DNA from: Halobacteroidaceae bacterium
GTDB lineage: Bacteria; Bacillota; Halanaerobiia; B1SED10-174
Reading direction: 5' to 3'
Assembly: GCA_003554145.1 (NCBI GenBank)
Contig: PWFS01000001.1
Span: 1,439-65,438, forward strand
DNA: 64,000 nucleotides
This document shows positions 7,217 through 64,000 of the stretch, in pieces (position 1 is the first letter of the stretch; each line of letters begins with the position of its first letter). The notes under the pieces were generated by a model. It did no database searches. It saw nothing but the letters and a program-made list of their open reading frames with translations, and was not told the DNA's origin. The translations under genes were made by a program, and so were the position numbers.

Positions 7217-7374
7217 TTGGACAGATATTTTTTCGCATCTTTGACCTGCCCTGATAGTTTCCATTTATGGAAATCTACTCCCAGAAGATAATAAAATTAG
7301 AGGAATCCGAGGGGGAAAATAGAACTTTAAGGTATGCTTAATGAAAATGATTATTGGAAAAGAAGGTGAAAAAA

Positions 7375-9192
7375 ATGGCCCAGACTCTGGCCTATATAAA
7401 TGGTGAGCACTTTTATTATGCTTTTGTGGCAGGAAGTAACGAGGTCTCCCGCTACCGGGATTTCCTCAATAAGATTAACGTTTTTCCAGTTTTTGATAGC
7501 GATACCGGTAATAATCTGGCCCAGACCTTAAACTACATTGTGGATTCGGTTCAGCCCCAAAAATCTCTGGGGGAGACAGTTCGTTCCCTGGCCAATGCTT
7601 CATTGAGTGGTGCTGTCGGAAATTCTGGTATTATACTGGCCCAGTTTATTAACGGGCTGGCCCGGGAAATTGGCGAAGTCAGTTCCCTGACTCCAGAAGA
7701 TTTTGGGGATAAGGTCCGGCGAGCAGTACCCTATGCTTACAAAGCGGTGGCTCGACCGGTGGAGGGAACCATGCTGACAGTTTTAAGGGAATGGTCGGAG
7801 GCCCTGAAAAAGGCGGCAGAAGAAACCGGGGATATTATGAAGATGTTCAAGAATTCCCTGGATCAGGCCCGGGTATCTCTGCAGGAAACAACTGATAAGA
7901 TTAAGGTCCTAAAAGAGGCCCTGGTGGTGGATGCCGGGGCCCAGGGTTTTGTTTTTTTCCTGGAGGGTGTAGCCCGCCTGGTGGAAACCGGTAATATCAG
8001 GTCCCTGCTGCGCCAGAAGGCCCCGGACCTGGCTATAGAGGAGCCCTGGGCCGGGGTAAGTGGTGAAATAAACCTGAGGTATTGTTCTGAAGCCCTGTTA
8101 AAGGGGGAAGACCTTGACCATGAAGAACTGCGGGAAAAACTGGAACCCTCTGGTGATTCTCTGATTATTGCTGGAACCGGGGAAAAGGTAAAAATCCATC
8201 TCCATACCAATAAACCGGATGAGTTTTTCTTCCAATTGAGGGATTACGGGACCATTATCCATCAGAAAGTTGATGATATGCAGCGGCAGTACCAGGTAGC
8301 TCATGAGCGACAAAATAAAATTGCTCTGATTACTGATTCTATTGCTGATATTCCCCAGGAAACAATAGACCGGCATCAGATTCACCTGATTCCCATCAAC
8401 CTGATAATTGAAGGATCTACTTTCCTGGATAAAGTATCTATCAAGCCCGATCAGATTTACTCCATACTGGATCAGGTGAAGGAATATCCCACTTCATCGC
8501 AACCCCCTCTGAAAACTGTAGAGAAAATGCTCAATTTTCTCTCTCAGTATTATGAATCAATAATTGTGGTTTCGGTATCCAAAGAACTGAGTGGAACCTG
8601 GAATGTTTTTTCCCGCGCTGCCCAACCACTGCAAAAACAGGGTAAGAAGATTTCCATTATTAATTCCCGTCTCAATTCCGGGGCCCAGGGGTTACTGGTT
8701 CAAAAAGCTGCCCAACTAATTGAAAAGGAATTGGAACACGAGGAAATTGTGGAAATTCTGGAAGAAAAAATCAAGCAAACCAGCATTTTTGTTAGTGTTG
8801 CTACTTTTAAATATATGGTCCGGGGAGGACGGGTCAGCCCGATGAAAGGGTTATTGGGTAAAGTTTTAAACCTGAAACCCATTGTTTCTCTGGACGAAGA
8901 AGGGCGGGGCACTGCATTTGCCCGCAGCTTCAGCCGGAGGGGCAGTACTAAAAAAATAGTGGACATCATAAAGGGAATTAAAGAAAAAAGTCCGGTGGAA
9001 AGTTACTGTATTGTCCATGCCGGGGCTCCAGAAAAAGCTCAATCTTATCGAGATATTTTTTCCAGGATGCTGGGGAAAGAACCGGATTATGTGGTTGAAA
9101 TATCTCCGATTGTTGCTTTAAGTGCGGGCCTGGGAGCAGTTGCAGTTGCGGTGATGACAGGAGAGGAAGAAGCTGCCCCGGTTGTTTCTTGA
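7375..9192 (+). CDS. DAK2-domain / DegV-domain fusion protein (YloV/FakA-like fatty-acid kinase-type architecture)
   Basis: N-terminal Dak2-like region; C-terminal DegV signature KIALITDSIADIP..., GSTF.D, SxxLSGT; start chosen at ATG 7375 after GAAGGTG RBS (ORF extends to 7354). Confidence 0.65.
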   Translation: MAQTLAYINGEHFYYAFVAGSNEVSRYRDFLNKINVFPVFDSDTGNNLAQTLNYIVDSVQPQKSLGETVRSLANASLSGAVGNSGIILAQFINGLAREIGEVSSLTPEDFGDKVRRAVPYAYKAVARPVEGTMLTVLREWSEALKKAAEETGDIMKMFKNSLDQARVSLQETTDKIKVLKEALVVDAGAQGFVFFLEGVARLVETGNIRSLLRQKAPDLAIEEPWAGVSGEINLRYCSEALLKGEDLDHEELREKLEPSGDSLIIAGTGEKVKIHLHTNKPDEFFFQLRDYGTIIHQKVDDMQRQYQVAHERQNKIALITDSIADIPQETIDRHQIHLIPINLIIEGSTFLDKVSIKPDQIYSILDQVKEYPTSSQPPLKTVEKMLNFLSQYYESIIVVSVSKELSGTWNVFSRAAQPLQKQGKKISIINSRLNSGAQGLLVQKAAQLIEKELEHEEIVEILEEKIKQTSIFVSVATFKYMVRGGRVSPMKGLLGKVLNLKPIVSLDEEGRGTAFARSFSRRGSTKKIVDIIKGIKEKSPVESYCIVHAGAPEKAQSYRDIFSRMLGKEPDYVVEISPIVALSAGLGAVAVAVMTGEEEAAPVVS

Positions 9193-16328: not shown

Positions 16329-16910
16329 CTAAAGGACCCCCTTGGTACTGGGAAGATGCGATTTACCGGTTAAACTGCTGGCTGCCTGCAGGGCCCGGGC
16401 AAAAGCTTTAAAGAGGGCTTCAATCTGATGGTGGTCGCTGCGTCCATACAGGATTCGCAGGTGAATTGCAGCCTGGAGGGAGCGGGACAGGCCTCCAAAA
16501 AAATCAAATATCAGATCGCAGGGAAAATCTCCAACCTGTTCTCCCCGGGGAGAAAAGTCACAGTGGAAATATGATCGTCCGGAGAGATCTACTGCGGCCA
16601 TGGCCAGGGTTTCGTCCATGGGAAAAAAGAAAAAACCTGCTCGCTGTATGCCCTTTTTATTTCCCAGCGCCTTTTGCAAGGCTTCTCCCAGGGCAATTCC
16701 CGTATCCTCTACCAGGTGATGGGGATCAACATGGAGGTCTCCCTGGAGAGAAGCTTCCAGGTTCAGACTGCCGTGACAGGCCAGGCATTCCAGCATATGG
16801 CTAAAAAAGCCCAGTTCACAATCTATATTGCTCTGCCCGGAACCATCCAGGGTGACTTTAATTTTAATCTCTGTTTCCCTGGTCTTTCTGCTTACAATTC
16901 CCGATCGCAT
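16329..16910 (-). CDS. hisB: Imidazoleglycerol-phosphate dehydratase
   Basis: RKTRETEIKIKVTLDGSG, DPHHLVEDTGIALG, HHQIEALFKAFARAL typical IGPD. Confidence 0.9.
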   Translation of the reverse strand: MRSGIVSRKTRETEIKIKVTLDGSGQSNIDCELGFFSHMLECLACHGSLNLEASLQGDLHVDPHHLVEDTGIALGEALQKALGNKKGIQRAGFFFFPMDETLAMAAVDLSGRSYFHCDFSPRGEQVGDFPCDLIFDFFGGLSRSLQAAIHLRILYGRSDHHQIEALFKAFARALQAASSLTGKSHLPSTKGVL

Positions 16911-18625
16911 TCTAAAACCTCCTCCAGTTCCATAATACTCTCTATTATTCTGTGGGCTCCTGCTTTTTGCAGGGCTTCCCGATCGGAAAGGGTATTTCCC
17001 GGGGGCATAAAACCCAGGGGAATTAAACCTGCTCTGCGGGCCGCCTCCATATCATCGGGAGTATCCCCGATATAATAACCGCGGGAACTCCCCATTTTTT
17101 CCAGGGCCAGCTCCAGTCCTGCCGGGTCAGGCTTGCCCTTTTCGGGGGGCAGATCATCCATGGTGATTATCGGGGAGAAAAAATCTTTTAATCCCAGGTG
17201 CTCCAGGGTAAAAAAAGCTTCGGACCGGGGCCTACCTGTAACAATACCAAGTTTAAATTTCCGGCTTAACTTCCCCAATAATTCGCGATTAATAAGGGGT
17301 TTTTCTTTTTGAATTAAACCATTCCAGTCCTGGCCCAGGTAAAACTCCTGGAATTTTTCAATAATCCGGGAGCGGGGAATATCAATTTTTCTCCTTTCAA
17401 GCAGGGCTGCCGTTAGATCCCAGTCATTATTAAAACCCCCCGCCCTTTTCGCTGCAGCAATTTCCTCCTGATCCGGTCTCTGTCCGCTGAAAAACTTAAC
17501 TGTGGCAGCAATGGCCTCTCGGTAAGAAGAACGGACATCGACCAGGACCCCGTCCAGATCAAATAGCAGGACTGATGGAGAGAGAACCTTCTCCAGGGCC
17601 TGTAACAACTGTTCATGGTCCTTCCGGGTGCCAATGCTGATCCGCAGGTACTCCTCCAGAGGAGGATAATTTTCCAGGGAGCGGACCCGTATATTTTCCC
17701 GGGCCAGGGCCTTTTGTACTGCGGCAGCCCCGGGTCCCACTTTAATCAGGATAAAATTGGTAGCGGTAGTACGGGTCTCAATATGCAGACGAGCCAGGGC
17801 TTTTTGTAAAAAGACTTTTTCCTGTTCCACGAACTCTTTTTCTTTTTCAATAAATTCCTGATCAGAGAGAGCCGCCCGGGCGGCAACAACTGCTGGACCA
17901 CTGAGGGGGTAGGGAGGATTAATCAGGTGCAGTTTTTCAATTATGCTGGTCGACCCAATTATATAGCCCAGGCGCAAACCGGCCAGACCGTAGGCCTTGG
18001 AAAAAGTTCGAATCAGGATCAGATTGGGAAACTCTTCCAGCAGAGGGACTGCTGAAACTCCAGAATAGTGGTGGTAGGTTTCATCAATAATAACCGGGGT
18101 TTGGGGGAAATTCTGCAGGATCCGGGTAATGGTTTCCAGGGTGATTATTTCCCCGGTAGGGCTGGCGGGATTAACCAGGATAAGGGCTGCGGGGGGTTCA
18201 GTTGATTGGGCCAATACCTGATCCAGGGGAAAGGTTAGGTCCGGCCCATACTTAATTTCTCCAGGCCGGGCCTGCCGCAGGTTTAAAAAGAGGCGGTACA
18301 TGGAATAGGTGGGGGGGGTCAGGACCACATCCTTATTTTTTTCTACCAGTGCCTCCAGAATAACCCGGATGGCTTCATCCCCGCCACAGGTTAAAATGAG
18401 ATTCTCGGGCCTGACTCCCACCTCATTAGCCAGTTCAAGATAAAGTTCATGATAATCAGGATAGGCAAATAGGGTTTCGGGTTCTAAACGGGAGAGCTCT
18501 TCCTTTACCCGGGGTGAAGGACCCCGAGGATTTTCATTCATATCCAGGCAGATCTGTTTAGAACGGGGAGTGGTGGAAACGGGGTAAGGGGATAAATTTT
18601 CCAGGGCAGTTCTTACTCGGATCAT
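16892..18625 (-). CDS. hisC: Histidinol-phosphate aminotransferase fused to C-terminal HAD-IA phosphatase domain (putative bifunctional HisC / histidinol-phosphatase)
   Basis: N-terminal class-II aminotransferase with YPDY, SKAYGLAGLRLGY (PLP-Lys); after ~350 aa continues in frame into FDLDGVLVD (DxDG motif I), GIVTGRP (motif II), K...GDTPDDMEAARRAG (motifs III/IV). Confidence 0.8.
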   Translation of the reverse strand: MIRVRTALENLSPYPVSTTPRSKQICLDMNENPRGPSPRVKEELSRLEPETLFAYPDYHELYLELANEVGVRPENLILTCGGDEAIRVILEALVEKNKDVVLTPPTYSMYRLFLNLRQARPGEIKYGPDLTFPLDQVLAQSTEPPAALILVNPASPTGEIITLETITRILQNFPQTPVIIDETYHHYSGVSAVPLLEEFPNLILIRTFSKAYGLAGLRLGYIIGSTSIIEKLHLINPPYPLSGPAVVAARAALSDQEFIEKEKEFVEQEKVFLQKALARLHIETRTTATNFILIKVGPGAAAVQKALARENIRVRSLENYPPLEEYLRISIGTRKDHEQLLQALEKVLSPSVLLFDLDGVLVDVRSSYREAIAATVKFFSGQRPDQEEIAAAKRAGGFNNDWDLTAALLERRKIDIPRSRIIEKFQEFYLGQDWNGLIQKEKPLINRELLGKLSRKFKLGIVTGRPRSEAFFTLEHLGLKDFFSPIITMDDLPPEKGKPDPAGLELALEKMGSSRGYYIGDTPDDMEAARRAGLIPLGFMPPGNTLSDREALQKAGAHRIIESIMELEEVLECDREL

Positions 18626-18626
18626 T

Positions 18627-19490
18627 TCAAATAACAACCTTTCGAAGTTCATATTCCAGGATATCCGTTGCTCCAAACTTTTTTAGTATTGGAATAATAC
18701 GGGCAGCTTCATCCCTGGGAACTGCAGCTTTTACCGCAAACCCCTCCTCCCGATGGAGGGTGGAAACAGTAGGAGAGCGCATACAGGGTAGAATTTTGAC
18801 TACTGTTTCCAGTTGCTCGCGGGGGACATTCATTTCCAGCATTACCCGGGTGCGGGCGTCCAGGATGGACTGAAAAAGGAGCTTTAGCTCTTCAATTTTT
18901 TCTTTTTTCCAGGGATCCTCCAGGGCCTGGGGGTTGGCGATAAACCTGGTAGACGAATTCAGGAGGGTAGATACAATTGACAGGTGATTTTCCTTAAGAG
19001 TCTGACCGGTGGAGGTGTTATCAATTATCATATCTGCATCTTCGGGTGGGAAAACTTCGGTGGCTCCATAGGTTCGGATCAAAACATAGTCAAAACCCTG
19101 TTCCTGCAGGAATTTTTCTGCCAGTAGTTGATACTCTGAAGCGACAACAATTCTTTTCTTTTTTAGTTCTGTCAGGGAAGAATTATAGGGGATCGCCGCT
19201 ACTATTTGCACTGGATTAAAACCCAGATTGAGTACTTCTTTTACGCCTGCTTCTGTTTCCAGGATCCAGTCCAAACCGGTGAATCCAGCATCATGACTCC
19301 CCAGTTCCACCAGAGAGGGAATATTCTGGGGTTTCATAATTTTCACCTCAATGGAACTGTCGCTGACAAAAGGACGATAACCCCGGGTTGAAAGGTTGAT
19401 CTCAATTCCAGCCTCCTCCAGCAAACGAACGACATTGTCAAAAATTCTTCCCTTGGGCAACATCAGGCGGAGCAGTGACATGGTTAACAC
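18627..19490 (-). CDS. hisG: ATP phosphoribosyltransferase, long form with C-terminal regulatory domain
   Basis: LRLMLPKGR, DAGFTGLD, IIDNTSTGQTL; about 285 aa. Confidence 0.85.
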   Translation of the reverse strand: MLTMSLLRLMLPKGRIFDNVVRLLEEAGIEINLSTRGYRPFVSDSSIEVKIMKPQNIPSLVELGSHDAGFTGLDWILETEAGVKEVLNLGFNPVQIVAAIPYNSSLTELKKKRIVVASEYQLLAEKFLQEQGFDYVLIRTYGATEVFPPEDADMIIDNTSTGQTLKENHLSIVSTLLNSSTRFIANPQALEDPWKKEKIEELKLLFQSILDARTRVMLEMNVPREQLETVVKILPCMRSPTVSTLHREEGFAVKAAVPRDEAARIIPILKKFGATDILEYELRKVVI

Positions 19491-25903: not shown

Positions 25904-26033
25904 GGATCTGCCTCCTTTTATTAACAGAATCAGGTTGGTGAAAACTGTTCATTTAAAGGGCAGGAATTTTTTCCTGCTGGGGGAATTAATTAATAATTAA
26001 TCTTAATAAAAAGCACAGTTAGGGGGTTTGTTT

Positions 26034-27533
26034 ATGAGTAAAGGAAAAGTTGTAGTTGTCGGGGCTGGCCCGGGGGGGCTTACCAGTGCTATGCTCCTGG
26101 CGACAAGAGGTTTTGAGGTGCAGGTTTTCGAAAAGGAACCGGTCCTGGGGGGGCGCAATGCGGCATTGAAACTGGGGGATTATACTTTTGATATTGGACC
26201 AACTTTTTTTATGATGAAATTTATTCTGGACCAGATTTTCAAGGAAACAGGCCGGCAGGCTGAAGATTATCTGGATTTCAAACTTCTCGATCCCATGTAC
26301 CGGCTGCAGTTTGAGGATCGGGAAATATACATATCCAGTGATACCGAGAAAATGCAGGCGGAAATAGATCGGCATTTTCCGGGCAATGAAGGAGCTGTGC
26401 AAAACTTTTTAAGCCGTGAAGAAAAGAGACTGAAAAAACTTTTGCCCTGCCTGCAGCGACCATATAGTTCCTGGACTGATCTACTGGCTCCTGAAGTCCT
26501 GCAACTTCTGCCGCGCTTGAGTCTGGGTAGATCCCTTTTTGATGTTCTGGGAGACTATTTTTCCGAAGAACAGTTGAAACTCTCCTTTACTTTTCAGGCC
26601 AAATACCTGGGGATGTCTCCCTGGGAATGTCCCGGAGCCTTTGCCATTATTCCATTTATTGAACATAATTTTGGTATTTATCATATTCAGGGGGGCTTGA
26701 ATCAGATATCCGAGATGATGGGGAAAATTGTCCAGGAAGAGGGCGGGCAGATTCATACATCTACTCCGGTCAGCAAGATTATGGTTAAAGAAAAAAGAGC
26801 CTGTGGGGTAGAACTGGAGGATGGAACCCGGGTGGAAGCAGACAAGGTTATAATTAATGCGGATTTTGCCCATGCCATGAACGAATTATTTGACCCCGGG
26901 GTTTTGAAAAAGTATAACTCTCAGGCCCTGGAGCGCAAGAAATATTCCTGTTCCACCTTTATGCTGTACCTGGGCCTGGATAGGGAATATGATATCAATC
27001 ATCACAATATTGTTTTTGCCAGGAATTACCGGGAAAATGTTGATGATATTTTCAAGAATTTTAAATTGAGTGATGATATGTCCATCTATATCCAAAATCC
27101 TACTATAACTGATCCCGGTTTAGCCCCTGCAGGCCACTCGGCCCTGTATATCCTGGTTCCAATTGCCAATCGGCAGGCACCGGTGGAATGGAATGAACAA
27201 CAGGTTAAATATTACCGGGACCTGGTCCTGCAGACGATTAAGGAGAAAACCAGCCTTAAGGATATCGAGGAACATATTGTCCAGGAAAAGGCCATAACCC
27301 CTTTAAACTGGGAACAGGATTTCAGTGTTTACCGGGGGGCCACTTTTAACCTGGGTCATAATCTGTCCCAGATGCTCTATTTCCGGCCCCGGAACCGTTT
27401 TGAAGAGCTGGATGATTGCTTTCTGGTTGGGGGTGGAACCAATCCCGGCAGCGGCTTACCCACAATCTATGAGTCCGGCCGGATTGCTACCCGCCTGATA
27501 TGCTCAGATTATAATTTGCCATATGACCTTTAA
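26034..27533 (+). CDS. Phytoene-desaturase-family FAD oxidoreductase (CrtI/CrtN-like)
   Basis: VVVVGAGPGGLTSAMLLATRGFEVQVFEK dinucleotide-binding motif, C-terminal GGGTNPGSGLP; start ATG 26034 (ORF from TTG 26028). Confidence 0.8.
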   Translation: MSKGKVVVVGAGPGGLTSAMLLATRGFEVQVFEKEPVLGGRNAALKLGDYTFDIGPTFFMMKFILDQIFKETGRQAEDYLDFKLLDPMYRLQFEDREIYISSDTEKMQAEIDRHFPGNEGAVQNFLSREEKRLKKLLPCLQRPYSSWTDLLAPEVLQLLPRLSLGRSLFDVLGDYFSEEQLKLSFTFQAKYLGMSPWECPGAFAIIPFIEHNFGIYHIQGGLNQISEMMGKIVQEEGGQIHTSTPVSKIMVKEKRACGVELEDGTRVEADKVIINADFAHAMNELFDPGVLKKYNSQALERKKYSCSTFMLYLGLDREYDINHHNIVFARNYRENVDDIFKNFKLSDDMSIYIQNPTITDPGLAPAGHSALYILVPIANRQAPVEWNEQQVKYYRDLVLQTIKEKTSLKDIEEHIVQEKAITPLNWEQDFSVYRGATFNLGHNLSQMLYFRPRNRFEELDDCFLVGGGTNPGSGLPTIYESGRIATRLICSDYNLPYDL

Positions 27534-27550: not shown

Positions 27551-29032
27551 TCAGCCCCTTCCTTTAGTTATTTTATCCCGGACCTGCAGTCCCGAAAGGA
27601 AGGCCATGGGCATTCCCCCGCCGGGGTTTACGCTGCCCCCGGTAAAAAATAGGTTGCGATATTTGCCGCTGACCTTGGGAGCTTTGAAACCCAGGTTTTT
27701 TTTGCGGTCAGAAACCACTCCGTAAATTGCTCCCCGATTGGAAAGATACAGGTTTTGAATATCGGCCGGGGACCACATCAGTTCGGTGACAATATGTTTA
27801 CGCAGGTCGGTTAACCCCATTTTTTCCAGTTTTTGCAGGACCTTTTCCCGGAGATCCATTAAATCCCCCTGAGAAAAAGGCTGCTCCTGTAGATGGGGAA
27901 TGTGGGGCAAAATTTTAATCACTTCTCCCCCCTCTGGAGCAGTTGCAGGATTGGTCTGGGTGGGAGCGACCAGGTAAATGGTTGGATCTTCAGGCAGTTT
28001 TTTCTCCTGGAAAATAGTGTGGAAGTGTTTTTCGGGATCGGAGGAGAAGAAAAAGTTGTGATGGGCCAGGTCGGGGTACTTGCGATCAACTCCCAGGTGC
28101 AGCACCAGCCCCGAACAGGCCGGTTCAAAGCGGTTCAGGCTGCGCATAAAGGCCTCTTCTTCCCCCAGCAATTCCTTATAGGCGGGGATAACCTCCATGT
28201 TGGAAACAAATAAATCACCCTTTACGACTTCCCCGTTCTCCAACTCCAGGCAGGTGATGGAACTCCCTTCAGTACGAAGACGACTGACCCGGCTTTCCAG
28301 GTGAACTTTGCCTCCCAGTTCCTGGAAAAGCTTCTGCAGGGCCTCACTCAGTTTAAAAAGGCCCCCCCGCACATACCATAACCCGAATTCATGCTGAATA
28401 AAGGGTAAAAGGTTCAGAATAGCCGGGGCTGAGTAAGGGGAGGAGCCTACGTACTTGATGAAAAAATTAAAAATATCAATGAGATAGGAGTTGTTTATGT
28501 AGCGGTTAACCCCCCGGTTCATGGTGGAGAACAGGTCAAAGCCCCGCAGGGTATCCCAGATTCCGTGAAATCGGATCAACTGGGGAAGGGTATCGATACC
28601 CTCCTGGAAATAACCTTTTTCCACCTGTTCATAGAGTTTTTTGGTGTAGGATAAAAATCGGTTCATTTCCTCTGCATCCTTAGAACTCAGGATGCTGTTT
28701 TTCTGTACCATTTCTTCGGGGGCAGCATAGAGGTCAATAACCGTGTCATCGGGGAAGAAATTGCGCCACTGCAGTTCCAGCAGTTCAAATTCCACGTAAT
28801 CCTTAATGTTGCGGCCAGCTTCGGTGAAGGCCTGTTCAAAAATATGGGGCATGGTTAGAATGGAAGGCCCCAGGTCAAAGGAAAAACCATCCTGCTCAGT
28901 ATAATTGAGCTTACCGCCCAGGTGCTTATTTTTTTCAAAGAGCTCAACTTCATAACCAGAATTCAAAAGGGAGATACCGGCAGCAAGTCCTCCCAGGCCG
29001 CCACCAATGATTTTTGCCTGCGGGGTATTCAT
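27551..29032 (-). CDS. Second phytoene-desaturase-family FAD oxidoreductase (CrtI/CrtN/CrtP-like)
   Basis: KIIGGGLGGLAAGISLLNSGYEVELFEK..., GGSVNPGGGMP; convergent with first copy, 17 nt apart. Confidence 0.8.
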   Translation of the reverse strand: MNTPQAKIIGGGLGGLAAGISLLNSGYEVELFEKNKHLGGKLNYTEQDGFSFDLGPSILTMPHIFEQAFTEAGRNIKDYVEFELLELQWRNFFPDDTVIDLYAAPEEMVQKNSILSSKDAEEMNRFLSYTKKLYEQVEKGYFQEGIDTLPQLIRFHGIWDTLRGFDLFSTMNRGVNRYINNSYLIDIFNFFIKYVGSSPYSAPAILNLLPFIQHEFGLWYVRGGLFKLSEALQKLFQELGGKVHLESRVSRLRTEGSSITCLELENGEVVKGDLFVSNMEVIPAYKELLGEEEAFMRSLNRFEPACSGLVLHLGVDRKYPDLAHHNFFFSSDPEKHFHTIFQEKKLPEDPTIYLVAPTQTNPATAPEGGEVIKILPHIPHLQEQPFSQGDLMDLREKVLQKLEKMGLTDLRKHIVTELMWSPADIQNLYLSNRGAIYGVVSDRKKNLGFKAPKVSGKYRNLFFTGGSVNPGGGMPMAFLSGLQVRDKITKGRG

Positions 29033-55023: not shown

Positions 55024-55110
55024 TGGTGCCGAGAGCGGGATTCGAACCCGCACAGGCTCACGCCCACAGCGCCCTCAACGCTGCGTGTCTGCCAATTCCA
55101 CCATCTCGGC
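55024..55110 (-). tRNA. tRNA-Leu (anticodon GAG), class II with long variable arm
   Basis: Reverse complement GCCGAGATGGTGGAATTGGCAGACACGCAGCGTTGAGGGCGCTGTGGGCGTGAGCCTGTGCGGGTTCGAATCCCGCTCTCGGCACCA: 7-bp acceptor stem, anticodon stem CAGCG/CGCTG with loop TTGAGGG (anticodon GAG), T-loop GGTTCGAATCC, encoded CCA. Confidence 0.85.
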
Positions 55111-55427: not shown

Positions 55428-56915
55428 ATGTTTTTTGCAGGGGGGATAATTTTGGAAAAATGGCGTGATGTACTGGCCCTGCTTGTAATTCTGGGCCTGG
55501 TGGCAGCCTCCCTGGGGGCCATATTTTTCCTGCAAAGGGGAATTGATGTGCAGGTTTTTACTCCGGAAAATCGTATTGTGGCCCGAAATATAGGGGCCAC
55601 TGGTGAAGTGCATTTTTCGGGGGGGGAGAGAGTGTATTCTCCTTTTGCGGGTATAATTGCCGAAGTCCAGGTAAAAAAAGGAGAACTGGTGGAAAAGGGC
55701 GATCCCCTTTTTATTTATGATACCGAGGAATGGGAAAGAGAATTAATGCAGTTGAAACTGCGCTTCCAGCAGCTAAAAGAGGAAGAATCTTTTAGGGAAA
55801 ATCAAATTCGAAGAGAACTTGCTGACCTGGAAGCCAGAAAAATGGACTGGCTTTTGCGGGAAGAAGAACTTCATTATTCTCAGGATATAAGAAAATGGGA
55901 AATGGAATGTTTGATCCAGGATCTGGAAAGGGAATTAGATCAGGCGAGAAAAGATCTGGCTGATCTGGAGGATTTTTATCATTCAGAATATGTTACCTGG
56001 CGAGAAGTTCAAAAAGCACGGGATCAAGTTGCAAACCTGGACCATGAACTGAAAAGGGCCAGGTTGGACCAGAAACAGGTCCTGGAGGTTGAATTCCCCC
56101 TGCAGGAAAAGATTTTAAACAGAGAAGGTTTGCGGATCAGTAACAAAATAGAAGAAACCCGCAAAAAACTGGAAGTTTTCCTGGAAAAAAAAGGCCTGAA
56201 TTCTGCCTACCAGGAAATGGAACTAATTCAGGGCAGCATTGAACAACTGGAACTGAGGCTGGCGAATAAGGAAGTGATGGCTCCAGAAGAGGGGCTGGTT
56301 AACAGCCTGATGCTGGAACAGGGCCAGAGGGTTAATCAAGGATTGCTGGCCCTAGAAATTAATGATCCTGCTGCAATTGAGATTGTTCTGAAGGTCAACT
56401 CCCGGGATTTTCACCGACTGGAAAAGGGGCAGGAGGTGGAGGTTTTCCTGGAGGACATTCATCCTCCCCTGAGTGGAAAAATTGAATGGATAGCACCCTG
56501 GGCTGAAGAACAATTGGTAGAAACCGGGGTTGTTTTGACGGACCGGCGAGATCTTCTCCGGCCGGGAATGGTCGTAGAAGCACAGATTAATCTGACCGGA
56601 CGGCGCCTTCTGATACTTCCCCCCCAGGCAGTTTTTGAGCGTGAACTTCAAGATACCAGGATGATAATCAGGGAGGGAGAGGATACTGCCTATTATGTAT
56701 TTCTGGTGGACAAGGATTCCCGGGAGGTTTATCCCAGTCGGGTGCGTATCGGACAGGAAACTCAGGATTATATTGAAATTGTTTCCGGCCTCAGTGCTTC
56801 CAGCAATGTAGTTATCGGGGATACCGAGGCTCTTAACAGGTTGGAAGGCTACCTGACCGAGTGGGAACAGAGGTTGATTGAAGAAATCAGGGAAAATTTT
56901 ACTGATAATAATTAG
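55428..56915 (+). CDS. HlyD-family membrane-fusion / periplasmic adaptor protein (start may be TTG 55452)
   Basis: N-terminal TM, long coiled-coil heptad region (ELMQLKLRFQQLKEEE..., DLADLEDF...), C-terminal beta-barrel/lipoyl-like segments. Confidence 0.7.
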   Translation: MFFAGGIILEKWRDVLALLVILGLVAASLGAIFFLQRGIDVQVFTPENRIVARNIGATGEVHFSGGERVYSPFAGIIAEVQVKKGELVEKGDPLFIYDTEEWERELMQLKLRFQQLKEEESFRENQIRRELADLEARKMDWLLREEELHYSQDIRKWEMECLIQDLERELDQARKDLADLEDFYHSEYVTWREVQKARDQVANLDHELKRARLDQKQVLEVEFPLQEKILNREGLRISNKIEETRKKLEVFLEKKGLNSAYQEMELIQGSIEQLELRLANKEVMAPEEGLVNSLMLEQGQRVNQGLLALEINDPAAIEIVLKVNSRDFHRLEKGQEVEVFLEDIHPPLSGKIEWIAPWAEEQLVETGVVLTDRRDLLRPGMVVEAQINLTGRRLLILPPQAVFERELQDTRMIIREGEDTAYYVFLVDKDSREVYPSRVRIGQETQDYIEIVSGLSASSNVVIGDTEALNRLEGYLTEWEQRLIEEIRENFTDNN

Positions 56916-56926
56916 GAGCTGTTTTT

Positions 56927-58993
56927 ATGGTTCGCTTTTTCTCGCGCAGGATTCTAACCGTATTATTGCTGATCTGGCTTCTAACTGCAATAATTTTTGC
57001 CCTGATTGCTGCTTCTCCCGAAGGGTTGGAGAGAGTTCTTCCTGTTAGTGGATCCGGCCCCTTTGAGCTGGCCCGAGAAAGGAGTATCAATAACCTGGAT
57101 TCTTCTCCAGCCAGGGAGTATTTTGTCTGGATTGGGGAAATGTTATCCGGGAATCTGGGAACTGTTGGAGGTACTGGCTCAACCGGGTTCCCCCTGATCA
57201 CCATTCTGGGACAGCGCCTGGCTGTTAGTTTTATACTGATTGGAACCTCACTCATTGTCGCGGTGTCAGCCGGGCTGATAATGGGGGTTTACTCTGCCCT
57301 CCGTCCCCACAGTATCCTGAGCAGATTATTGAATTACCTGGGTATACTGGGAGTTTCTATTCCTGATTTTGCCCTGGGAATTCTGTTATTGATAGTATTT
57401 GCTGTTCATCTGCAGTGGCTTCCTTCCGGTGGTCAGCAGGGCCTCCTATTTGATGAAACAGGCCTGAGTATGATCCTTGACCGTTTGCGCCATTTAATTC
57501 TACCGGTGATAACCCTTGCCGCTGGTTATATTGCCATTTTTTCTGAGCATGTAAAAACAGCCTTATCCCTCACCGTCCGGGAAGACTATATTCGTACCGC
57601 TCGTTCCAAGGGACTTTCCGAAAAAGTGGTTATTCTCAAGCATGCCCTGCGCAACAGCATGATTCCCATTCTGGCTTCCCTTTTTTCTTCCCTACCCTTT
57701 TTTCTGGGGGGAATAGTGGTGGTAGAACACCTCTTTTCCTGGCCCGGTTTGGGCTCTTTCATTTATCGTAATGTCCTGGACCGAACCGGGGATTTTTACG
57801 TGGTATTAATTATAACCGGGCTGATATCCTTTATTACCCTGATGGGGAGTCTCCTGGCTGACTTTTTGTATGCCCTGGTGGATCCCCGGGTGCGCAATCC
57901 GGTGGAAAAAACGGATAAAGGAATTCCCCTACTAAATATTTTTATTGTTGCAGGAACTGGCCTGTTCGCAGTTTTCTTTTACTTCTGGATTCTGGAACCC
58001 GCTTACAGCTTCCTGGGGTCAGGAATGGTTATTGGGATGGCCTTTGCTGGCTTTCTGACCCTTATTGGCATCTGGGTATTGCCCCGCCGAAAAGAAAAAA
58101 AACAACCCAACTCTCCAGGAGGATCCTTGACGACCTGGTCTCAGGCGTTACCTGTTTTTAACTGGAGATTAATTATTGGTTTTTTCCGGGGCCTGGCTCG
58201 TCCGGGAGTAATTCTGGGAATTATTATCCTGATCAGTATAATGGGAGGTTATTTCTATACTCAGAGCGAGGGTTTAATGCGGGTGAGTGATATGCCTGTA
58301 GACCTGGAAAATCGTCTTGCGCCCCCTTCCCTGGAAAATATTTTAGGAACTGATCGAATTGGGAGGCCAGTTTTAACTGCGGTTTTAATTAATGCTGGTA
58401 ATACTATGAGCCTGGTTTTTTATATAACACTTATTGGTCTTCTGGGAGGAACTGTTCTGGGGGTCCTTTCCGGTTATCTGCAGGGTCTTTTTGACCGCTC
58501 CCTGATGGCCATATTTGATCTGCTGTCCTCAATCCCCAGTTTTTTCTTTGTGTTTTTGATTATGGGGGCCATTGGTCAGGAGGAGAACATAATAATAATG
58601 GCTGCTGCGGTGGTAGGTTTGATAGAGCTAACCCGGGTTATCCGGGCCCGGATGCTTTCCATTAAAGAATTCCAGTTTGTGGAGGCTGCCCGCTCCCTGG
58701 GTAATTCTGACCTGCAGATTCTGGCCCGCCATCTTCTTCGCAATGTTTTTCCCCTGATCTGGGGACAGGGTTTGATTCTTTTTGGCCGTAATATGGTTTT
58801 ATTATCTTCTCTGGGGTATTTGCGGATAATACCTTCTACTACCTGGGGTTCAATGGCCGGTGATGCCGTGCGGTCTTCCCTTTATGATTGGTGGGTCAGC
58901 CTGGGGCCCATCATTATGATTATCCTGGTAGTTTTTGCCGTAAATATTATCGGGAAGGGGGTGCTGGGAAACATTGATCCCCTTAAGAAATAA
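56927..58993 (+). CDS. Fused OppB-like + OppC-like ABC permease (single 688-aa polypeptide); no ATPase or SBP in operon
   Basis: First half contains DYIRTARSKGLSEKVVILKHALRN (OppB/DppB signature); second half contains EAARSLGNSDLQIL (OppC/DppC signature). Confidence 0.75.
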   Translation: MVRFFSRRILTVLLLIWLLTAIIFALIAASPEGLERVLPVSGSGPFELARERSINNLDSSPAREYFVWIGEMLSGNLGTVGGTGSTGFPLITILGQRLAVSFILIGTSLIVAVSAGLIMGVYSALRPHSILSRLLNYLGILGVSIPDFALGILLLIVFAVHLQWLPSGGQQGLLFDETGLSMILDRLRHLILPVITLAAGYIAIFSEHVKTALSLTVREDYIRTARSKGLSEKVVILKHALRNSMIPILASLFSSLPFFLGGIVVVEHLFSWPGLGSFIYRNVLDRTGDFYVVLIITGLISFITLMGSLLADFLYALVDPRVRNPVEKTDKGIPLLNIFIVAGTGLFAVFFYFWILEPAYSFLGSGMVIGMAFAGFLTLIGIWVLPRRKEKKQPNSPGGSLTTWSQALPVFNWRLIIGFFRGLARPGVILGIIILISIMGGYFYTQSEGLMRVSDMPVDLENRLAPPSLENILGTDRIGRPVLTAVLINAGNTMSLVFYITLIGLLGGTVLGVLSGYLQGLFDRSLMAIFDLLSSIPSFFFVFLIMGAIGQEENIIIMAAAVVGLIELTRVIRARMLSIKEFQFVEAARSLGNSDLQILARHLLRNVFPLIWGQGLILFGRNMVLLSSLGYLRIIPSTTWGSMAGDAVRSSLYDWWVSLGPIIMIILVVFAVNIIGKGVLGNIDPLKK

Positions 58994-60665
58994 TCGGGCC
59001 CTGCGCCTGGGACTACTATTTTTGATCCTCCTCGGGGTGGGAACGCATTTTTTGCTGCTTCCGGATCAGGCCGGGGAAGAAAAATCCATATTGCATTCTC
59101 CCCGGCACTTAATTACCCATATTCAGGCGGGTAATTACCCTCCTGCTTTTTTGTTAGAGGAAGAAGGGATTATCCATTTTCTGGGCCGGGAACAGGGGCA
59201 TATATTGCAGTACATCAGGCTGGAAGATTATTTCACTCCTTCCCTCCAGGAAAAAATCAAATTTTCCAGGGATATTACTCTTGAATATGTTCTCCCTCTG
59301 GGACAGGAAGAGGGAGGGGATCTCCTGTTTGCCGTTGTTGGCCGGGAAAGATGGGAGCATAGTATTTTTCTTCTGTCCAGAGAAGAAGGGGAATGGGTTC
59401 AAAAAAAGTTACCCCTCCACCCTGTTCAGAGTAAGGATGTAGACGGGTTGTTAATTAAAGACGAAGTAGTTCTGGTGTATGTGGAACGTGAAGAAGATCA
59501 ATATCACTTAAAAATGAAGAAAGGTAATAATTCTCCCATATCCCTTTTTTCTTCTCCAGGCCATATCGGCTTACCTCGCCTGGAGATCGATGAAAAAAAC
59601 AGGCTGCATGTTATGTGGAAAGGCACCCGGGGAGCCGTTGGTATAATGCAGTATCAGGTGTTCTGTCCGGAAGAGGGTGAACCCCAGAGCGAGAATCCCC
59701 GGGAACTGGGGGAAGCTTCAATTTATTTTGGAGAGATCTCCGGTCAGCCCCGCTTGTTTCGAGAGGATCCGGGAGGCAGCCTGATGGTTGATGCAGGGGG
59801 AAATGTTTTTCTGGCCTGGACCGATGCTTTCTGGGAACCTCTTCTGGGGGTTCATCGAAGCAAGGTCCACCTGACCCGCCTATCTTCAGATGGTCAGGAG
59901 CAGGGAGAATGGATTTTTTCTGGATTGGAAAACTTTTCCCTGGCCCCCAGGCTTTTGACTATTCCCGAGAAAGGGACTGCTCTTTTTTTGGAAGACCTGG
60001 CGGGGAATCAGTTTAATCTTCAATTTTTGGAACTTTGCCCGGAGGTGGATGACTTTATTTCTCCCAGCCGTTTTACCCCCTTTTATGGCAATCATCGGCT
60101 GGCTGCTGTTGACAGTGATGAAGAAGGGGAAAAAATGGTTATGTGGCGGACCATGGATGGGAGAAAGGACGCAGTATGGGCCCGGAGCAGTCGGCAGTCA
60201 TCTTTACCCACCTGGTACGATAGCTGGGGACTCTGGTTTGCCCGGGAGGGGACCCAAGATCTTTTCATTGAAGGGAGCCTCCTGATGTTATACAGTCTGG
60301 CGGGAGGGGTTGCTTTTCTGGGTCGAAACGCTCTAATTATTGCCCTGATTGCCCTACTGCTCTATGGTTTGCAGACTTACCGGTTCCTGGGGAAAATTAA
60401 TTTCTTTATTTTCTCCGGCTTATTATTGGCCCTTTTATTCTTTTTCCAGGAATTTTTCCCCCTGTTTTATTCACCTCCTTACGCTCAACCGGGGTTGCTG
60501 CTGTTTTCTGCCCTGATTACAACAACGGTAATGATTGGAGTTGCCCGTAAACACTGGTTTGATGGAGGAGAAGAAATAATATACCTGAGCTATACTGTTT
60601 TCTGGATTTTCTTTAATTCCTTTTTGATCTTACTGGCTACGGCGCCAGCAACTTTCCACCCCTGA
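58974..60665 (+). CDS. Paralog C of the membrane-anchored repeat protein family (TTG start overlapping permease stop)
   Basis: N-terminal TM LGLLFLILLGVG; repeats IHFLG, LLFAVVG, VLVYVERE, LHVMWKG, VFLAWTD, MVMWRT; C-terminal 4-TM region. Confidence 0.55.
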   Translation: MIPLRNNRALRLGLLFLILLGVGTHFLLLPDQAGEEKSILHSPRHLITHIQAGNYPPAFLLEEEGIIHFLGREQGHILQYIRLEDYFTPSLQEKIKFSRDITLEYVLPLGQEEGGDLLFAVVGRERWEHSIFLLSREEGEWVQKKLPLHPVQSKDVDGLLIKDEVVLVYVEREEDQYHLKMKKGNNSPISLFSSPGHIGLPRLEIDEKNRLHVMWKGTRGAVGIMQYQVFCPEEGEPQSENPRELGEASIYFGEISGQPRLFREDPGGSLMVDAGGNVFLAWTDAFWEPLLGVHRSKVHLTRLSSDGQEQGEWIFSGLENFSLAPRLLTIPEKGTALFLEDLAGNQFNLQFLELCPEVDDFISPSRFTPFYGNHRLAAVDSDEEGEKMVMWRTMDGRKDAVWARSSRQSSLPTWYDSWGLWFAREGTQDLFIEGSLLMLYSLAGGVAFLGRNALIIALIALLLYGLQTYRFLGKINFFIFSGLLLALLFFFQEFFPLFYSPPYAQPGLLLFSALITTTVMIGVARKHWFDGGEEIIYLSYTVFWIFFNSFLILLATAPATFHP

Positions 60666-61068
60666 ATAAGGGTAGAATTGGACCGTCAGAAACTAAAACT
60701 ATTGGATTAGTTGTCAGGGAGATCTCCAGAGGAAAGCGGGGCAATTATGGAGGCAGATAAAGAGTGAGCGGGTTTTTTATCCTGAGCCTGCTCCTGGCTC
60801 CAGCTGTTTTCATGCCCTGATAAAAAAGCCTCCGGGACAGTTAGAGGTCAAACCAAGAACCAGACAATTTCCAAAAAACCCTGTTCTTCGATTCAGCAGT
60901 CTCGGAAATTATTTCAGGCCTGGATTCAGAGCAGAGGTTTTTTTTTATTTTCCTGTCCGGTTAGTTGTGAAGGTAGGGAATAAGGAAGAAGGAAGTCAGG
61001 AATAAAACTTTTTTTATCAACAGGCTTTTAAGGCTTGTTTTTTTTATATTTTTTTAGTATCATTTGTT

Positions 61069-62331
61069 ATGAGGGTGTGCACCGTTTGTGCACATACTCT
61101 ACCTGGAGGTGAGAGAGTGCATCCATTTTTAGAACATGTTAACCCGGCACTGGGATCATTATTGAAAGCTTTAAATATGGATAAAACATTTGTTAAAGGG
61201 GAGGGTAGCTGGCTCTATGATGAAAAGGGAGACTGTTATCTGGATATGGTGTCCTCATATGGTGCCCTTCCTTTCGGTTATAATCCTCCTGCTATCTGGG
61301 AGGCTCTAAAACAGGTTGAAAAAACAGCAGAACCGAGCCTGGTTCAACCTTCATTCTTAGGAGCTGCGGGGGAACTGGCCCGTCGTCTGGTAGAGCTGGC
61401 GCCTCCCGGGATGGACAAGGTCACATTTACCAATAGTGGGACCGAGGCGGTGGAGGCAGGAATCAAAATGGCCCGAGCTCGCACAGGGCGTCAGGGAATT
61501 ATTTCTACCTACGGGGGCTTTCACGGCAAAACCCTGGGGTCTCTCTCTGCTACAGGTAGGGCCTCCTATCAAAAGCCATTTTTTGCTCCTGTAGAGGGTT
61601 TTGGATTTATTCCCTTTGGGGACCTGGAGGCTCTGCAGCGTGTTCTTGCTGAAAAAGGTGAGCAAATTGCTGCGGTGGTCCTGGAACCCATTCAGGGTGA
61701 GGGAGGCATAGTTGAACCTCCTCCTGGATATTTGCGGCAGGCCCAGGAGTTATGTACCGAGAATGGGTCCTTATTAATTGTCGATGAAATTCAAACTGGC
61801 CTGGGGCGAACAGGGTATCTTTTCCTTGCTGCTGAAGAGGGCTTCACTCCCGATATTATTACCCTGGCCAAAGCCCTGGGGGGCGGTCTTTTCCCTATTG
61901 GAGCCGTTCTGGCCAGAGGAGATGTTTTCACCGATGATTTTGGTAACAAGCACTCCTCCACTTTTGCGGGCAATACCCTGGGGGCCAGGGTAGGAATTGC
62001 AGTTCTGGATCTTCTGACTGAGCGGGAAGGAGCATTGCTGCAGGAAGTCAGGGAGAAAGGGAAGCGTTTTAAAAAGGGCCTGGAAGAAATTAAAGAGGCT
62101 CATTCCAGAGTAATCAGAGAAATTCGAGGCCGGGGTTTTCTCCTGGGGATTGATTTTGATGTTTCCCGTTTCAATCTCCCCGAAACCCTCCTGGGAATCA
62201 TGGGCGATCAGGAAATGCTGACTCCGGTTCTTTCCAGCCATCTTCTCTGTCAGGAGCAAATCCGGGTGGCTCCAACCCTTAACGGAGATACAGTGATCCG
62301 AATTGAACCACCTCTGAATGTTAAAGATTAG
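61069..62331 (+). CDS. Class-III PLP-dependent aminotransferase (acetylornithine/omega-aminotransferase family)
   Basis: FVKGEGSWLYDEKG, TFTNSGTEAVEAGIKMAR, LLIVDEIQTGLGRTG, TLAKALGGG (PLP Lys) motifs. Confidence 0.8.
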   Translation: MRVCTVCAHTLPGGERVHPFLEHVNPALGSLLKALNMDKTFVKGEGSWLYDEKGDCYLDMVSSYGALPFGYNPPAIWEALKQVEKTAEPSLVQPSFLGAAGELARRLVELAPPGMDKVTFTNSGTEAVEAGIKMARARTGRQGIISTYGGFHGKTLGSLSATGRASYQKPFFAPVEGFGFIPFGDLEALQRVLAEKGEQIAAVVLEPIQGEGGIVEPPPGYLRQAQELCTENGSLLIVDEIQTGLGRTGYLFLAAEEGFTPDIITLAKALGGGLFPIGAVLARGDVFTDDFGNKHSSTFAGNTLGARVGIAVLDLLTEREGALLQEVREKGKRFKKGLEEIKEAHSRVIREIRGRGFLLGIDFDVSRFNLPETLLGIMGDQEMLTPVLSSHLLCQEQIRVAPTLNGDTVIRIEPPLNVKD

Positions 62332-62364
62332 GAAATTGATTATGCCCTGGAGGCAATAAAGAGA

Positions 62365-63738
62365 ATGGCCGGACAGTTGGAAAGAGGCAACACTGCCGCA
62401 ATTCTTAATCACCTGACTTCCAGTAAAGCTGTTCCTTCTCCCAGGATTAAGGCCAGACCTATCCGGCAGCCTCTTTCTGAAGACCCTGAAGAAGGCCGCT
62501 GGGCTTTCATTGCTCATCCCCTGGACATGGAAAATTATCGGGATTTTGATCGAAGCCTGCTTTCTCTGGAAGATGATGATATTCAGGAGCTCACCAGCAG
62601 GTGGAATGATCTGGTTGAGCCTTTCCTGGTTTCCGAAGCACGCATTGAAACCCCGGTCGGGGCCCGGGCCCGAGGAGAATTTATAATTGTTCCCCGTACT
62701 GCGGAGGAGCTGATAGAGATGCCTGGAGAAAAATCTCTACAGGAAGTTCGCCAGGCCCTCAACATGGCCCGGGACAGGGGAGCCAGGATTGTAGGACTTG
62801 GGGCCTACACCTCGGTGGTTAGCCGGGGAGGCCTCCATCTCCGTAAAGAGGGAGTACCCATTACTACCGGTAACAGCTTTACCGTTGGTTCGGCGATAAA
62901 AGCGGTGGAGAAGGCTGCCGCCAGCATTGATCTGCCCCTTAATCAGGCTCAAATAAGCGTCGTTGGTGCTACCGGGGCAATTGGTGGGGCTTCCGCTTTT
63001 CTCCTGGCTGAAAGAGCGGGAGGTTTAAACCTGATAGGAAATCCCCGCCATCCTGATAAAGCCTATCGCCGGCTATTAAAAACCTGTGCTCGAATTTATC
63101 GTCATTTGCTTAAGAAGGCAGAAGAAGGGGAAAGATTTGGCCCGGGCTCAATTGGAAGCTGGCTTCTGCAGCAAAAGAATGCTCCTGCTCCGGGAGAATC
63201 TCTGGCCCGCTTCTTAAAATGGACAGAGGAAATACAGCAGGAGCAGGAAACACCTGTAAAAATTTCTTCCTCCTGCCCCGATTCCCTACCCGAGTCGGAT
63301 ATAACTGTAATTGCGACCAGTTCCCTGGCTGAGTTTATTACAGCAGATATGCTAAAGGCAGGAGCTATTGTCCTTGACCTTTCTCGCCCTCCCAATGTTA
63401 GCCGTTCAGTGGAAAACAACAGGCCCGATGTCCTGGTTATTGACGGAGGTGTTATTAAAGCTCCTGGTGAACCCGACTGGGGCTGGAATTTTGGTTTTGA
63501 AAGGGGCCTGGCTTATGCCTGTATGACTGAAACCTTCATCCTGGCCCTGGAAAAAAATTATCGCAATATGAGTCTGGGAACCGATTTAAATTTAAAAGAT
63601 ATGAATTATATCCAGGAGATGGGTGAAAAACATGGTTTTGAACTGGCTGGCTTTCGCAGTTTTGATCGACCTCTGGACTTAAATAAATGGGAAAGATTTG
63701 TTGATTTCAGGTGTAAAAAGGATCCTCTCTACCGATAA
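62365..63738 (+). CDS. Acyl-ACP-reductase (AAR)-like NAD(P)-dependent dehydrogenase with ~90-aa insertion
   Basis: Motif-by-motif resemblance to recalled cyanobacterial AAR: LNHLTS (GHLTS), GLGAYTSVV (LGGFTSI), TTGNSFTVGSAI (TTGNTHTAYVI), VVGATGAIGGA (VVGATGDIGSA), VLVIDGG (VLIDGGYP), KHGFELAGF (RHGFQPLAL); 33 nt downstream of the aminotransferase. Confidence 0.55.
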   Translation: MAGQLERGNTAAILNHLTSSKAVPSPRIKARPIRQPLSEDPEEGRWAFIAHPLDMENYRDFDRSLLSLEDDDIQELTSRWNDLVEPFLVSEARIETPVGARARGEFIIVPRTAEELIEMPGEKSLQEVRQALNMARDRGARIVGLGAYTSVVSRGGLHLRKEGVPITTGNSFTVGSAIKAVEKAAASIDLPLNQAQISVVGATGAIGGASAFLLAERAGGLNLIGNPRHPDKAYRRLLKTCARIYRHLLKKAEEGERFGPGSIGSWLLQQKNAPAPGESLARFLKWTEEIQQEQETPVKISSSCPDSLPESDITVIATSSLAEFITADMLKAGAIVLDLSRPPNVSRSVENNRPDVLVIDGGVIKAPGEPDWGWNFGFERGLAYACMTETFILALEKNYRNMSLGTDLNLKDMNYIQEMGEKHGFELAGFRSFDRPLDLNKWERFVDFRCKKDPLYR

Positions 63739-63740
63739 AG

Positions 63741-63780
63741 AATAAGCTCTTATTTCCCCGGGAATAAGAGCTTTTTTCTT
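63741..63780 (+). terminator. Rho-independent terminator (AATAAGCTCTTATT-tccccggg-AATAAGAGCTT + TTTTTCTT)
   Basis: 11-bp perfect stem and T-run immediately after stop of 62365..63738. Confidence 0.7.
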
Positions 63781-64000
63781 CAATCTTCTTGGCCTTATTT
63801 TTTATTTAGAGTGCCATACCGCAACTCTAATTGGCCCCTTTCCAGGAAGCAAATCTTTTTAACACAAAGGTGCGGGAAATCACTGCAGGGCGCGATTAAA
63901 AGGGATTTGCCGGGTCTTAGAAAGGATAATACTGCGTGTCTGGTTGGGGAGTATTGCTATAGGGAACCCAAAAAGCCACTTTATTGAAGAAAAATGTTCA

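Follow-up and report, generated by a model that had tools for sequence, protein, structure and literature searches.

Two open reading frames, one reading frame

The 64,000-nt stretch of DNA analyzed here (the window; positions 1,439 to 65,438 of contig PWFS01000001.1, from the Halobacteroidaceae bacterium assembly GCA_003554145.1) contains two open reading frames (ORFs) near its 3′ end, ORF1 (61069..62331, forward strand, 420 aa) and ORF2 (62365..63738, forward strand, 457 aa). An initial annotation described them as a two-gene operon, in which a pyridoxal phosphate (PLP)-dependent aminotransferase is followed after a 33-nt spacer by a dehydrogenase resembling acyl-acyl carrier protein (ACP) reductase (AAR). 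However, both ORFs lie in the same reading frame, and their sole separator is a TAG at 62329–62331; read through from 61069 to 63738, the frame has 890 codons and a single internal stop. The 33 nt between the ORFs encode EIDYALEAIKR, which together with the preceding RIEPPLNVKD makes up the conserved helix region at the C-terminal end of the aminotransferase fold, and therefore do not constitute an intergenic spacer. We consider it probable (roughly 0.8) that 61117..63738 is a single gene for a bifunctional enzyme of the TamH type, interrupted by one G-to-T difference, and that its intact product is an 873-aa protein starting at GTG 61117 and comprising an N-terminal PLP-dependent class-III omega-transaminase, a linker of approximately 30 residues, and a C-terminal AAR-type thioester reductase. 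The locus has the following features.

61019..61046 (+): terminator-like hairpin with a 9-bp stem and T-run, parting the gene from the upstream membrane-protein genes; an equivalent hairpin is kept in relatives L088–L090
61076..61094 (+): perfect palindrome TGTGCAC-CGTTT-GTGCACA in the leader, a candidate operator or mRNA leader hairpin
61104..61119 (+): Shine-Dalgarno sequence GGAGG (61104–61108) and probable start codon GTG (61117–61119), from leader comparison with relatives
61117..62328 (+): class-III (omega) transaminase domain, from PF00202, NF053554, and PDB 4PPM matches
62329..62331 (+): in-frame TAG, from a GAG (Glu) codon by G-to-T; no other stop breaks the 890 codons
62332..62499 (+): final helix of the transaminase fold (EIDYALEAIKRMAGQLERGNTAAILNHL) and interdomain linker of approximately 30 residues; the junction is conserved in fused relatives
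62500..63738 (+): AAR-type thioester reductase domain, from PigE, TIGR04058, PDB, and fold matches
63052..63252 (+): helical element inside the Rossmann domain, ORF2 residues ~230–296, from alignment gaps and model helices
63744..63773 (+): intrinsic terminator with a 13-bp stem and T-run, ending the gene, from hairpin prediction

The presence of intact alleles identifies the interruption. Two contigs from soda-lake sediment metagenomes, L085 (SL_8KL_010_SED) and L086 (SL_5KL_010_SED), are 99.94% identical in DNA, encode an identical reductase, and carry G at 62329, giving GAG (Glu) where T in the window gives TAG. L086 differs from window positions 56365–64000 at 5 of 7,636 nt (99.94% identity) and holds an uninterrupted 889-aa ORF (L086 4705..7374); the other four differences (two synonymous, two conservative) all fall in upstream genes. 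Four more distant metagenome relatives, whose full-length fusions are 73–76% identical to the window and whose reductase parts are 70–73% identical, are likewise intact, with GAA or GGA at the equivalent codon. In the 108 related loci examined, all 106 of 106 relatives have an amino acid-specifying triplet at this place, which encodes Glu in 62 (GAG in 32, GAA in 30). Eighty of at least 552 relatives found among species-representative genomes were fetched; leaving out loci cut at the 5′ end, all 71 encode the aminotransferase and the reductase in one stop-free frame of 859–972 codons. The fusion is intact in the environmental population and in every relative examined, and what looked like a two-gene operon is therefore one fused gene with a G-to-T nonsense difference. 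Codon 421 reads TAG instead of GAG through either a strain-specific nonsense mutation or a base-call or assembly error.

TAG is read as pyrrolysine in some anaerobic Bacillota and halophilic relatives, and readthrough, by pyrrolysine insertion or by a suppressor, would yield the full-length protein from the window sequence as it stands. We regard recoding as highly improbable and, given the plain GAG of the near-identical contigs, effectively refuted. Relatives have Glu, Ala, Asp, Ser, or Gln at this codon, and 12 of the 46 long ORFs in the window end in TAG, an ordinary stop there. The window contains no pyl genes, and the sole RNA gene found in it is one ordinary tRNA.

A real TAG would deprive the transaminase of its last helix. 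Translation of the reductase might then restart at ATG 62365, 11 nt downstream of a Shine-Dalgarno-like GGAGG (62350–62354). A genuine two-gene split in the source strain, the halves acting as subunits, would draw on this ribosome-binding site and start codon within 33 nt of the stop, and no catalytic motif is missing from either half, each being intact in all other respects. Separate reductases and transaminases do cooperate elsewhere, as with TabE and TabA (bioRxiv 10.1101/2025.08.11.669332). However, GGAGG and ATG are also present in the intact allele, where they encode part of LEAIKRM, and are therefore fortuitous rather than evolved for re-initiation. A split at this point is seen in none of the 106 relatives, the population carries an uninterrupted allele, and truncation takes away a conserved helix of the transaminase fold; a functional split is accordingly quite unlikely. 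The preferred reading of one interrupted gene also carries a warning for annotation, since well-formed adjacent ORFs with a Shine-Dalgarno sequence and ATG between them can mimic an operon where there is one gene with a one-base interruption.

A few homologs give an incomplete picture of the junction. The closest protein match (P0015, 66% identity) has no bearing on the TAG, its contig being cut before the junction. A recurrent split was considered for homologs P0009 and P0013 and rejected, as their apparent N-terminal truncation results from frameshifts in low-coverage or error-prone assemblies; these lie in the aminotransferase part at ~9667–10026 of contig L001 and ~9735–9959 of contig L002. 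The apparent truncation of P0001 (contig L003) is unexplained, and only the C-terminal part of the aminotransferase domain is detectable there. Separately, L085 positions 1–789 overlap the window in two staggered blocks (58415–59203, and 58879 onward), which hints at a chimeric assembly or at a repeat within the membrane-protein gene at 58974..60665.

At the 5′ end, GTG 61117, preceded by GGAGG at 61104, is taken as the real start in place of ATG 61069, because relative L090 has ATA at the upstream position while the leader DNA is conserved among close relatives. The N-terminus of homolog P0041 aligns from GTG 61117, and the PigE profile match to the transaminase half begins at residue 17. The leader palindrome sits between a −10-like box and the Shine-Dalgarno sequence. 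It is exact and identically placed in all six close relatives (L085–L090), whose proteins have diverged by up to ~27%, and no other exact copy occurs in the window; it may be the operator of some regulator or may form a hairpin in the mRNA leader. Rfam identified no riboswitch or other RNA element in the 400-nt upstream gap, its only match being a tRNA elsewhere in the window, at 55027–55110. At the 3′ end, the strong terminator noted in the initial annotation is confirmed.

A class-III transaminase joined to an AAR-type reductase

Both halves of the gene match the same known enzyme, PigE. The NCBIfam PigE model (NF053554, 837 positions) is the best-scoring NCBIfam model for each, ORF2 aligning to positions 2–191 and later (E = 8.9e-49, 166.5 bits) and ORF1 to positions 380–730 (E = 1e-112, 378.1 bits). 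The best PDB entry by sequence is also shared, namely 4PPM (PigE, 861 aa), in which ORF1 matches residues 386–744 (E = 1.8e-84).

The transaminase half belongs to class III, in agreement with the initial annotation (PF00202; E = 2.7e-88, 296.8 bits against a gathering cut-off of 30.5). The PLP lysine is K268, numbered from ATG 61069 (codon 61870–61872), within the motif TLAKALGGG. After PigE, the nearest transaminase profiles are those of putrescine and acetylornithine aminotransferases. None of the ArgD, GabT, or putrescine aminotransferase equivalog cut-offs is reached (putrescine aminotransferase, 301.8 against 612; argD, 288.9 against 410), and no arginine, polyamine, or GABA operon was found around the gene, its neighbors in the window being transport and membrane genes. 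The possibility raised earlier of an ArgD or GabT ortholog in such an operon therefore finds no support. In fused relatives the domain junction is conserved as PPLxxxxE(E/Q)xxxAL. The AlphaFold2 model of ORF2 (pLDDT 93.4, pTM 0.92) begins with two short helices followed by coil, corresponding to the last transaminase helix and the linker (ORF2 residues 1–45). These residues had been described as an N-terminal extension of the reductase; they exist, but are the end of the aminotransferase fold and the interdomain linker of the fusion.

The reductase domain spans ORF2 residues 46–457. Its relationship to AAR, proposed from motifs in the initial annotation, is upheld by profile and structure comparison: ORF2 matches TIGR04058 (AAR) with E = 9.5e-24 and 84.3 bits, and PDB entries 6JZQ and 6JZU with E = 1.4e-16. 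Foldseek searches with the ORF2 model identify AAR structures 6JZY and 6JZU as the closest (E = 3e-22, target-normalized TM score 0.82, ~22% identity). The nucleotide-binding motif GxxGxxG lies at 62965–62985 (G201–G207), and the catalytic Cys386 (codon 63520–63522, motif AYACMTE; C818 when numbered along the fusion) aligns with AAR Cys294 in the 4PPM and 6JZQ alignments. Both the GxxGxxG motif and the catalytic Cys are invariant, the latter in an alignment of 43 sequences. Assignment to another dehydrogenase family, which had been named as an alternative, was rejected; shikimate dehydrogenase (PF01488, 19.3 against 24.3), semialdehyde dehydrogenase (PF01118, 17 against 26), and FolD match below threshold and over a short Rossmann segment only. 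Next in the structure ranking is the terminal amidation domain (TAD) of CarI (TM score ~0.67–0.71, 14–16% identity). The TAD family was rejected as more distant than AAR in the structure search, and no nonribosomal peptide synthetase (NRPS) is attached.

The Rossmann domain contains an insertion relative to both AAR and PigE. ORF2 residues 232–289 stand in place of PigE 192–198, an excess of ~51 residues, and the excess over AAR is ~53 residues. The spacing from GxxGxxG to the catalytic Cys is 185 residues here, 132 in AAR, and ~135 in PigE, the latter two counted from the PDB-entry alignments. In the ORF2 model the insertion is ordered (pLDDT 93–98) and forms helices 230–253, 263–268, and 280–292 between strands 220–224 and 298–301. 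The first helix is rich in Lys and Arg, and may correspond, in lengthened form, to the helix that AAR has there. The initial annotation had correctly noted the insertion and its basic character, but its length of ~90 residues is reduced by alignment to ~51–53, and it is not peculiar to this gene: the spacing is 170–189 in 107 of the 108 related loci, showing the insertion to be clade-wide. The insertion of ~50 residues is ancestral to the clade.

The published residue numbers of PtTamH, the transaminase-reductase fusion of Pseudoalteromonas tunicata, give a spacing of 180 (G707 to C887) against 185 in the window gene (G201 to C386), compared by numbering and not by alignment (PMC9594044). A comparable element is therefore implied in TamH, while PigE, with the reverse domain order, is without it. 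We infer from these numbers that the insertion is probably a hallmark of the transaminase-to-reductase domain order. It may serve in carrier-protein docking or in interdomain packing.

A clade of stand-alone fusions in anaerobic Bacillota

Homolog searches with ORF2 identified relatives at 44–49% identity, many with PF00202 N-terminal of the reductase. The relatives in species-representative genomes are mostly from anaerobic Bacillota, and carriers include Dethiobacteria, Syntrophomonadaceae, Symbiobacteriaceae, Limnochordia, Peptococcaceae, and Halanaerobiales, among them the cultured Brassicibacter mesophilus DSM 24659 and Sporotomaculum syntrophicum FB. A literature search found no paper on this Bacillota/Clostridia clade of transaminase-AAR fusions.

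The gene appears to stand alone. ORFs within ~7 kb of it were clustered across the 80 genomes and the window; no conserved partner gene was found in these surroundings, with no neighbor present in more than 19 of the 80 loci. From reading representative sequences only, we take the recurrent neighbors to be prolyl-tRNA synthetase, 5-formyltetrahydrofolate cyclo-ligase, M16 peptidases, TetR, and RluD, presumably of housekeeping type. No ANL, ACP, or pyrrole-pathway genes were found in the window. Synteny, consisting of upstream permease and membrane-protein genes and a downstream gene for a 275-aa membrane protein, is limited to close soda-lake relatives.

To our knowledge, the only thioester-to-amine fusion enzymes on record, PigE and TamH, belong to pyrrole-alkaloid pathways. 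Given these surroundings, it is tempting to speculate that the clade acts outside natural-product clusters, on housekeeping acyl-ACP or another core thioester, and represents a primary-metabolic route of anaerobes to long-chain or other primary amines, with the insertion as a carrier-docking or interdomain channeling element. We put this forward as a tentative proposal, possible but less likely than not. The same isolation, in housekeeping-type surroundings and with no carrier-protein partner, across at least 552 genomes, would also be compatible with a different function: a catabolic one (amine to aldehyde to acyl-thioester), a non-reductive chemistry like that of the TADs, or conversion of a short polar thioester (malonyl- or succinyl-, for instance) to an amino acid such as β-alanine or GABA instead of a fatty amine. 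The nearest transaminase matches after PigE, to putrescine and acetylornithine aminotransferases, point in this direction, as does the second-best structural family, the NAD-binding TAD of CarI, whose chemistry is unresolved (bioRxiv 10.1101/2024.10.28.620694). However, AAR and PigE (TM score 0.82, ~22% identity) resemble the reductase far more than TAD does (~0.7, ~15%), in sequence as in fold, PigE is the best match for both domains, and architecture and motif spacing fit the reductive PtTamH. Such a different function is therefore considered unlikely, and a reductive thioester-to-amine enzyme is preferred.

Enzymes of this kind are of interest as biocatalysts for fatty-amine synthesis, and this clade, which is widespread in anaerobes, stands alone, and includes cultured carriers, would offer new ones and raises the question of which amine is made. 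The remaining value of the locus lies in this large clade, as the window itself adds nothing unusual beyond the nonsense single-nucleotide difference.

Several neighboring genes were noted in passing. Upstream, window 55428–60665 (+) encodes an HlyD-like protein, then a 688-aa protein in which two BPD_transp_1 permease domains are fused (OppB-OppC-like), and lastly a 563-aa membrane protein without a Pfam match. Genes for an ATPase or a binding protein do not adjoin them. The order of permease, membrane-protein, and fusion genes is kept in L088 and L089. Beyond the window end, L086 7841–10781 holds the 275-aa protein, which is polytopic, has no Pfam match, and is downstream in L087–L090 too, and a 659-aa protein of the type-I phosphodiesterase/AlkP superfamily.

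Elsewhere in the window, a 612-aa ORF at 7354–9192 (+) combines Dak2, FakA-like_M, and DegV, and is fatty-acid kinase subunit A (FakA) fused to a fatty-acid-binding domain of the FakB/DegV type. In the his operon, a 594-aa ORF at 16892–18676 (−) joins a HisC-like aminotransferase of class I/II to a HAD hydrolase domain, and is possibly a histidinol-phosphate aminotransferase/phosphatase fusion. Two genes for flavoenzymes resembling amine oxidase and phytoene desaturase, 26028–27533 (+) and 27551–29032 (−), converge 18 nt apart, and a gene for an ICMT/PEMT-like methyltransferase adjoins the pair.

Predicted chemistry and relation to characterized enzymes

Two characterized fusions frame the predicted reaction. 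For PigE, with an AAR-like N-terminal domain containing Cys296, both the reduction of a thioester intermediate and the transamination of the resulting aldehyde have been shown (PMC8341465). PtTamH (UniProt A4C5V8), from the tambjamine YP1 pathway, has an N-terminal class-III omega-transaminase, a linker of ~50 residues, and a C-terminal AAR-type reductase; together with the ANL-ACP protein TamA it converted a C12 fatty acid to the C12 amine in vitro with NADH and Glu, and acyl-CoA was not accepted (PMC9594044).

By analogy, the intact enzyme would first load Cys386 of its reductase domain with an acyl group taken from a phosphopantetheine thioester of ACP, or possibly of CoA, and NAD(P)H would reduce the bound acyl group to an aldehyde. 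This product would then move to the transaminase domain, where PLP on Lys268 would turn it into a primary amine, the amino group coming from an amino acid such as Glu. This sequence from thioester to aldehyde to amine is well supported as a prediction by the homologs. What the analysis shows directly is the gene structure, the single-base difference, the domain families, the fold, and the conservation of the catalytic residues; activity, substrate, cofactor, and the role of the insertion are inferred. The initial annotation had proposed this route, and it stands in its chemistry but not in its two-gene form. Nor is the logic new, as natural fusions of transaminase and thioester reductase have already been characterized biochemically. 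The observation in that annotation is partly confirmed and its interpretation partly supported, the chemistry being right and the gene structure and novelty wrong.

Several points weigh against a TamH-type enzyme encoded by one interrupted gene. For this clade, the acyl-ACP-to-amine activity with NADH and Glu is a prediction from characterized homologs. Scores fall far below the equivalog cut-offs for PigE (166.5 and 378.1 bits for the two halves against 850) and for AAR (84.3 against 449.7), and the substrate is therefore not transferable from either. Neither an ANL-ACP partner resembling TamA nor a biosynthetic cluster was found in the window or the 80 genomes, whereas PtTamH required a dedicated ACP. 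Finally, the likeness to PtTamH was judged by published architecture and residue numbers, not by direct alignment.

Four known systems come closest to the gene. AAR (TIGR04058; PDB 6JZQ, 6JZU, and 6JZY) shares the fold of the reductase half, the Rossmann motif, and the equivalent of Cys294. However, it is a stand-alone protein of 340 aa that partners aldehyde-deformylating oxygenase in making alkanes, and it has neither the transaminase nor the insertion. The TADs of CarI and VatR (PDB 9E4S and related; bioRxiv 10.1101/2024.10.28.620694) have an AAR-superfamily fold, NAD binding, and an invariant Cys, but are C-terminal domains of NRPS modules, of low similarity and with no transaminase association.

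PigE, which acts in the MAP branch of prodigiosin biosynthesis in Serratia, is closer. Both catalytic domains and the thioester-to-aldehyde-to-amine logic are shared with it, and its Cys296 aligns with the catalytic Cys of the window gene. The order of its domains is reversed, with the reductase N-terminal and the transaminase C-terminal, and the window locus has no pig cluster. PtTamH has the order seen in the window gene, transaminase, linker, and reductase, and the same GxxGxxG motif and catalytic Cys. It differs in being 941 aa long, in sitting in the tam cluster, and in depending on TamA, whereas neither a carrier-protein partner nor pyrrole-alkaloid genes accompany the window gene or its clade. 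The locus would work like TamH and PigE, having the architecture of TamH in the absence of its pathway context.

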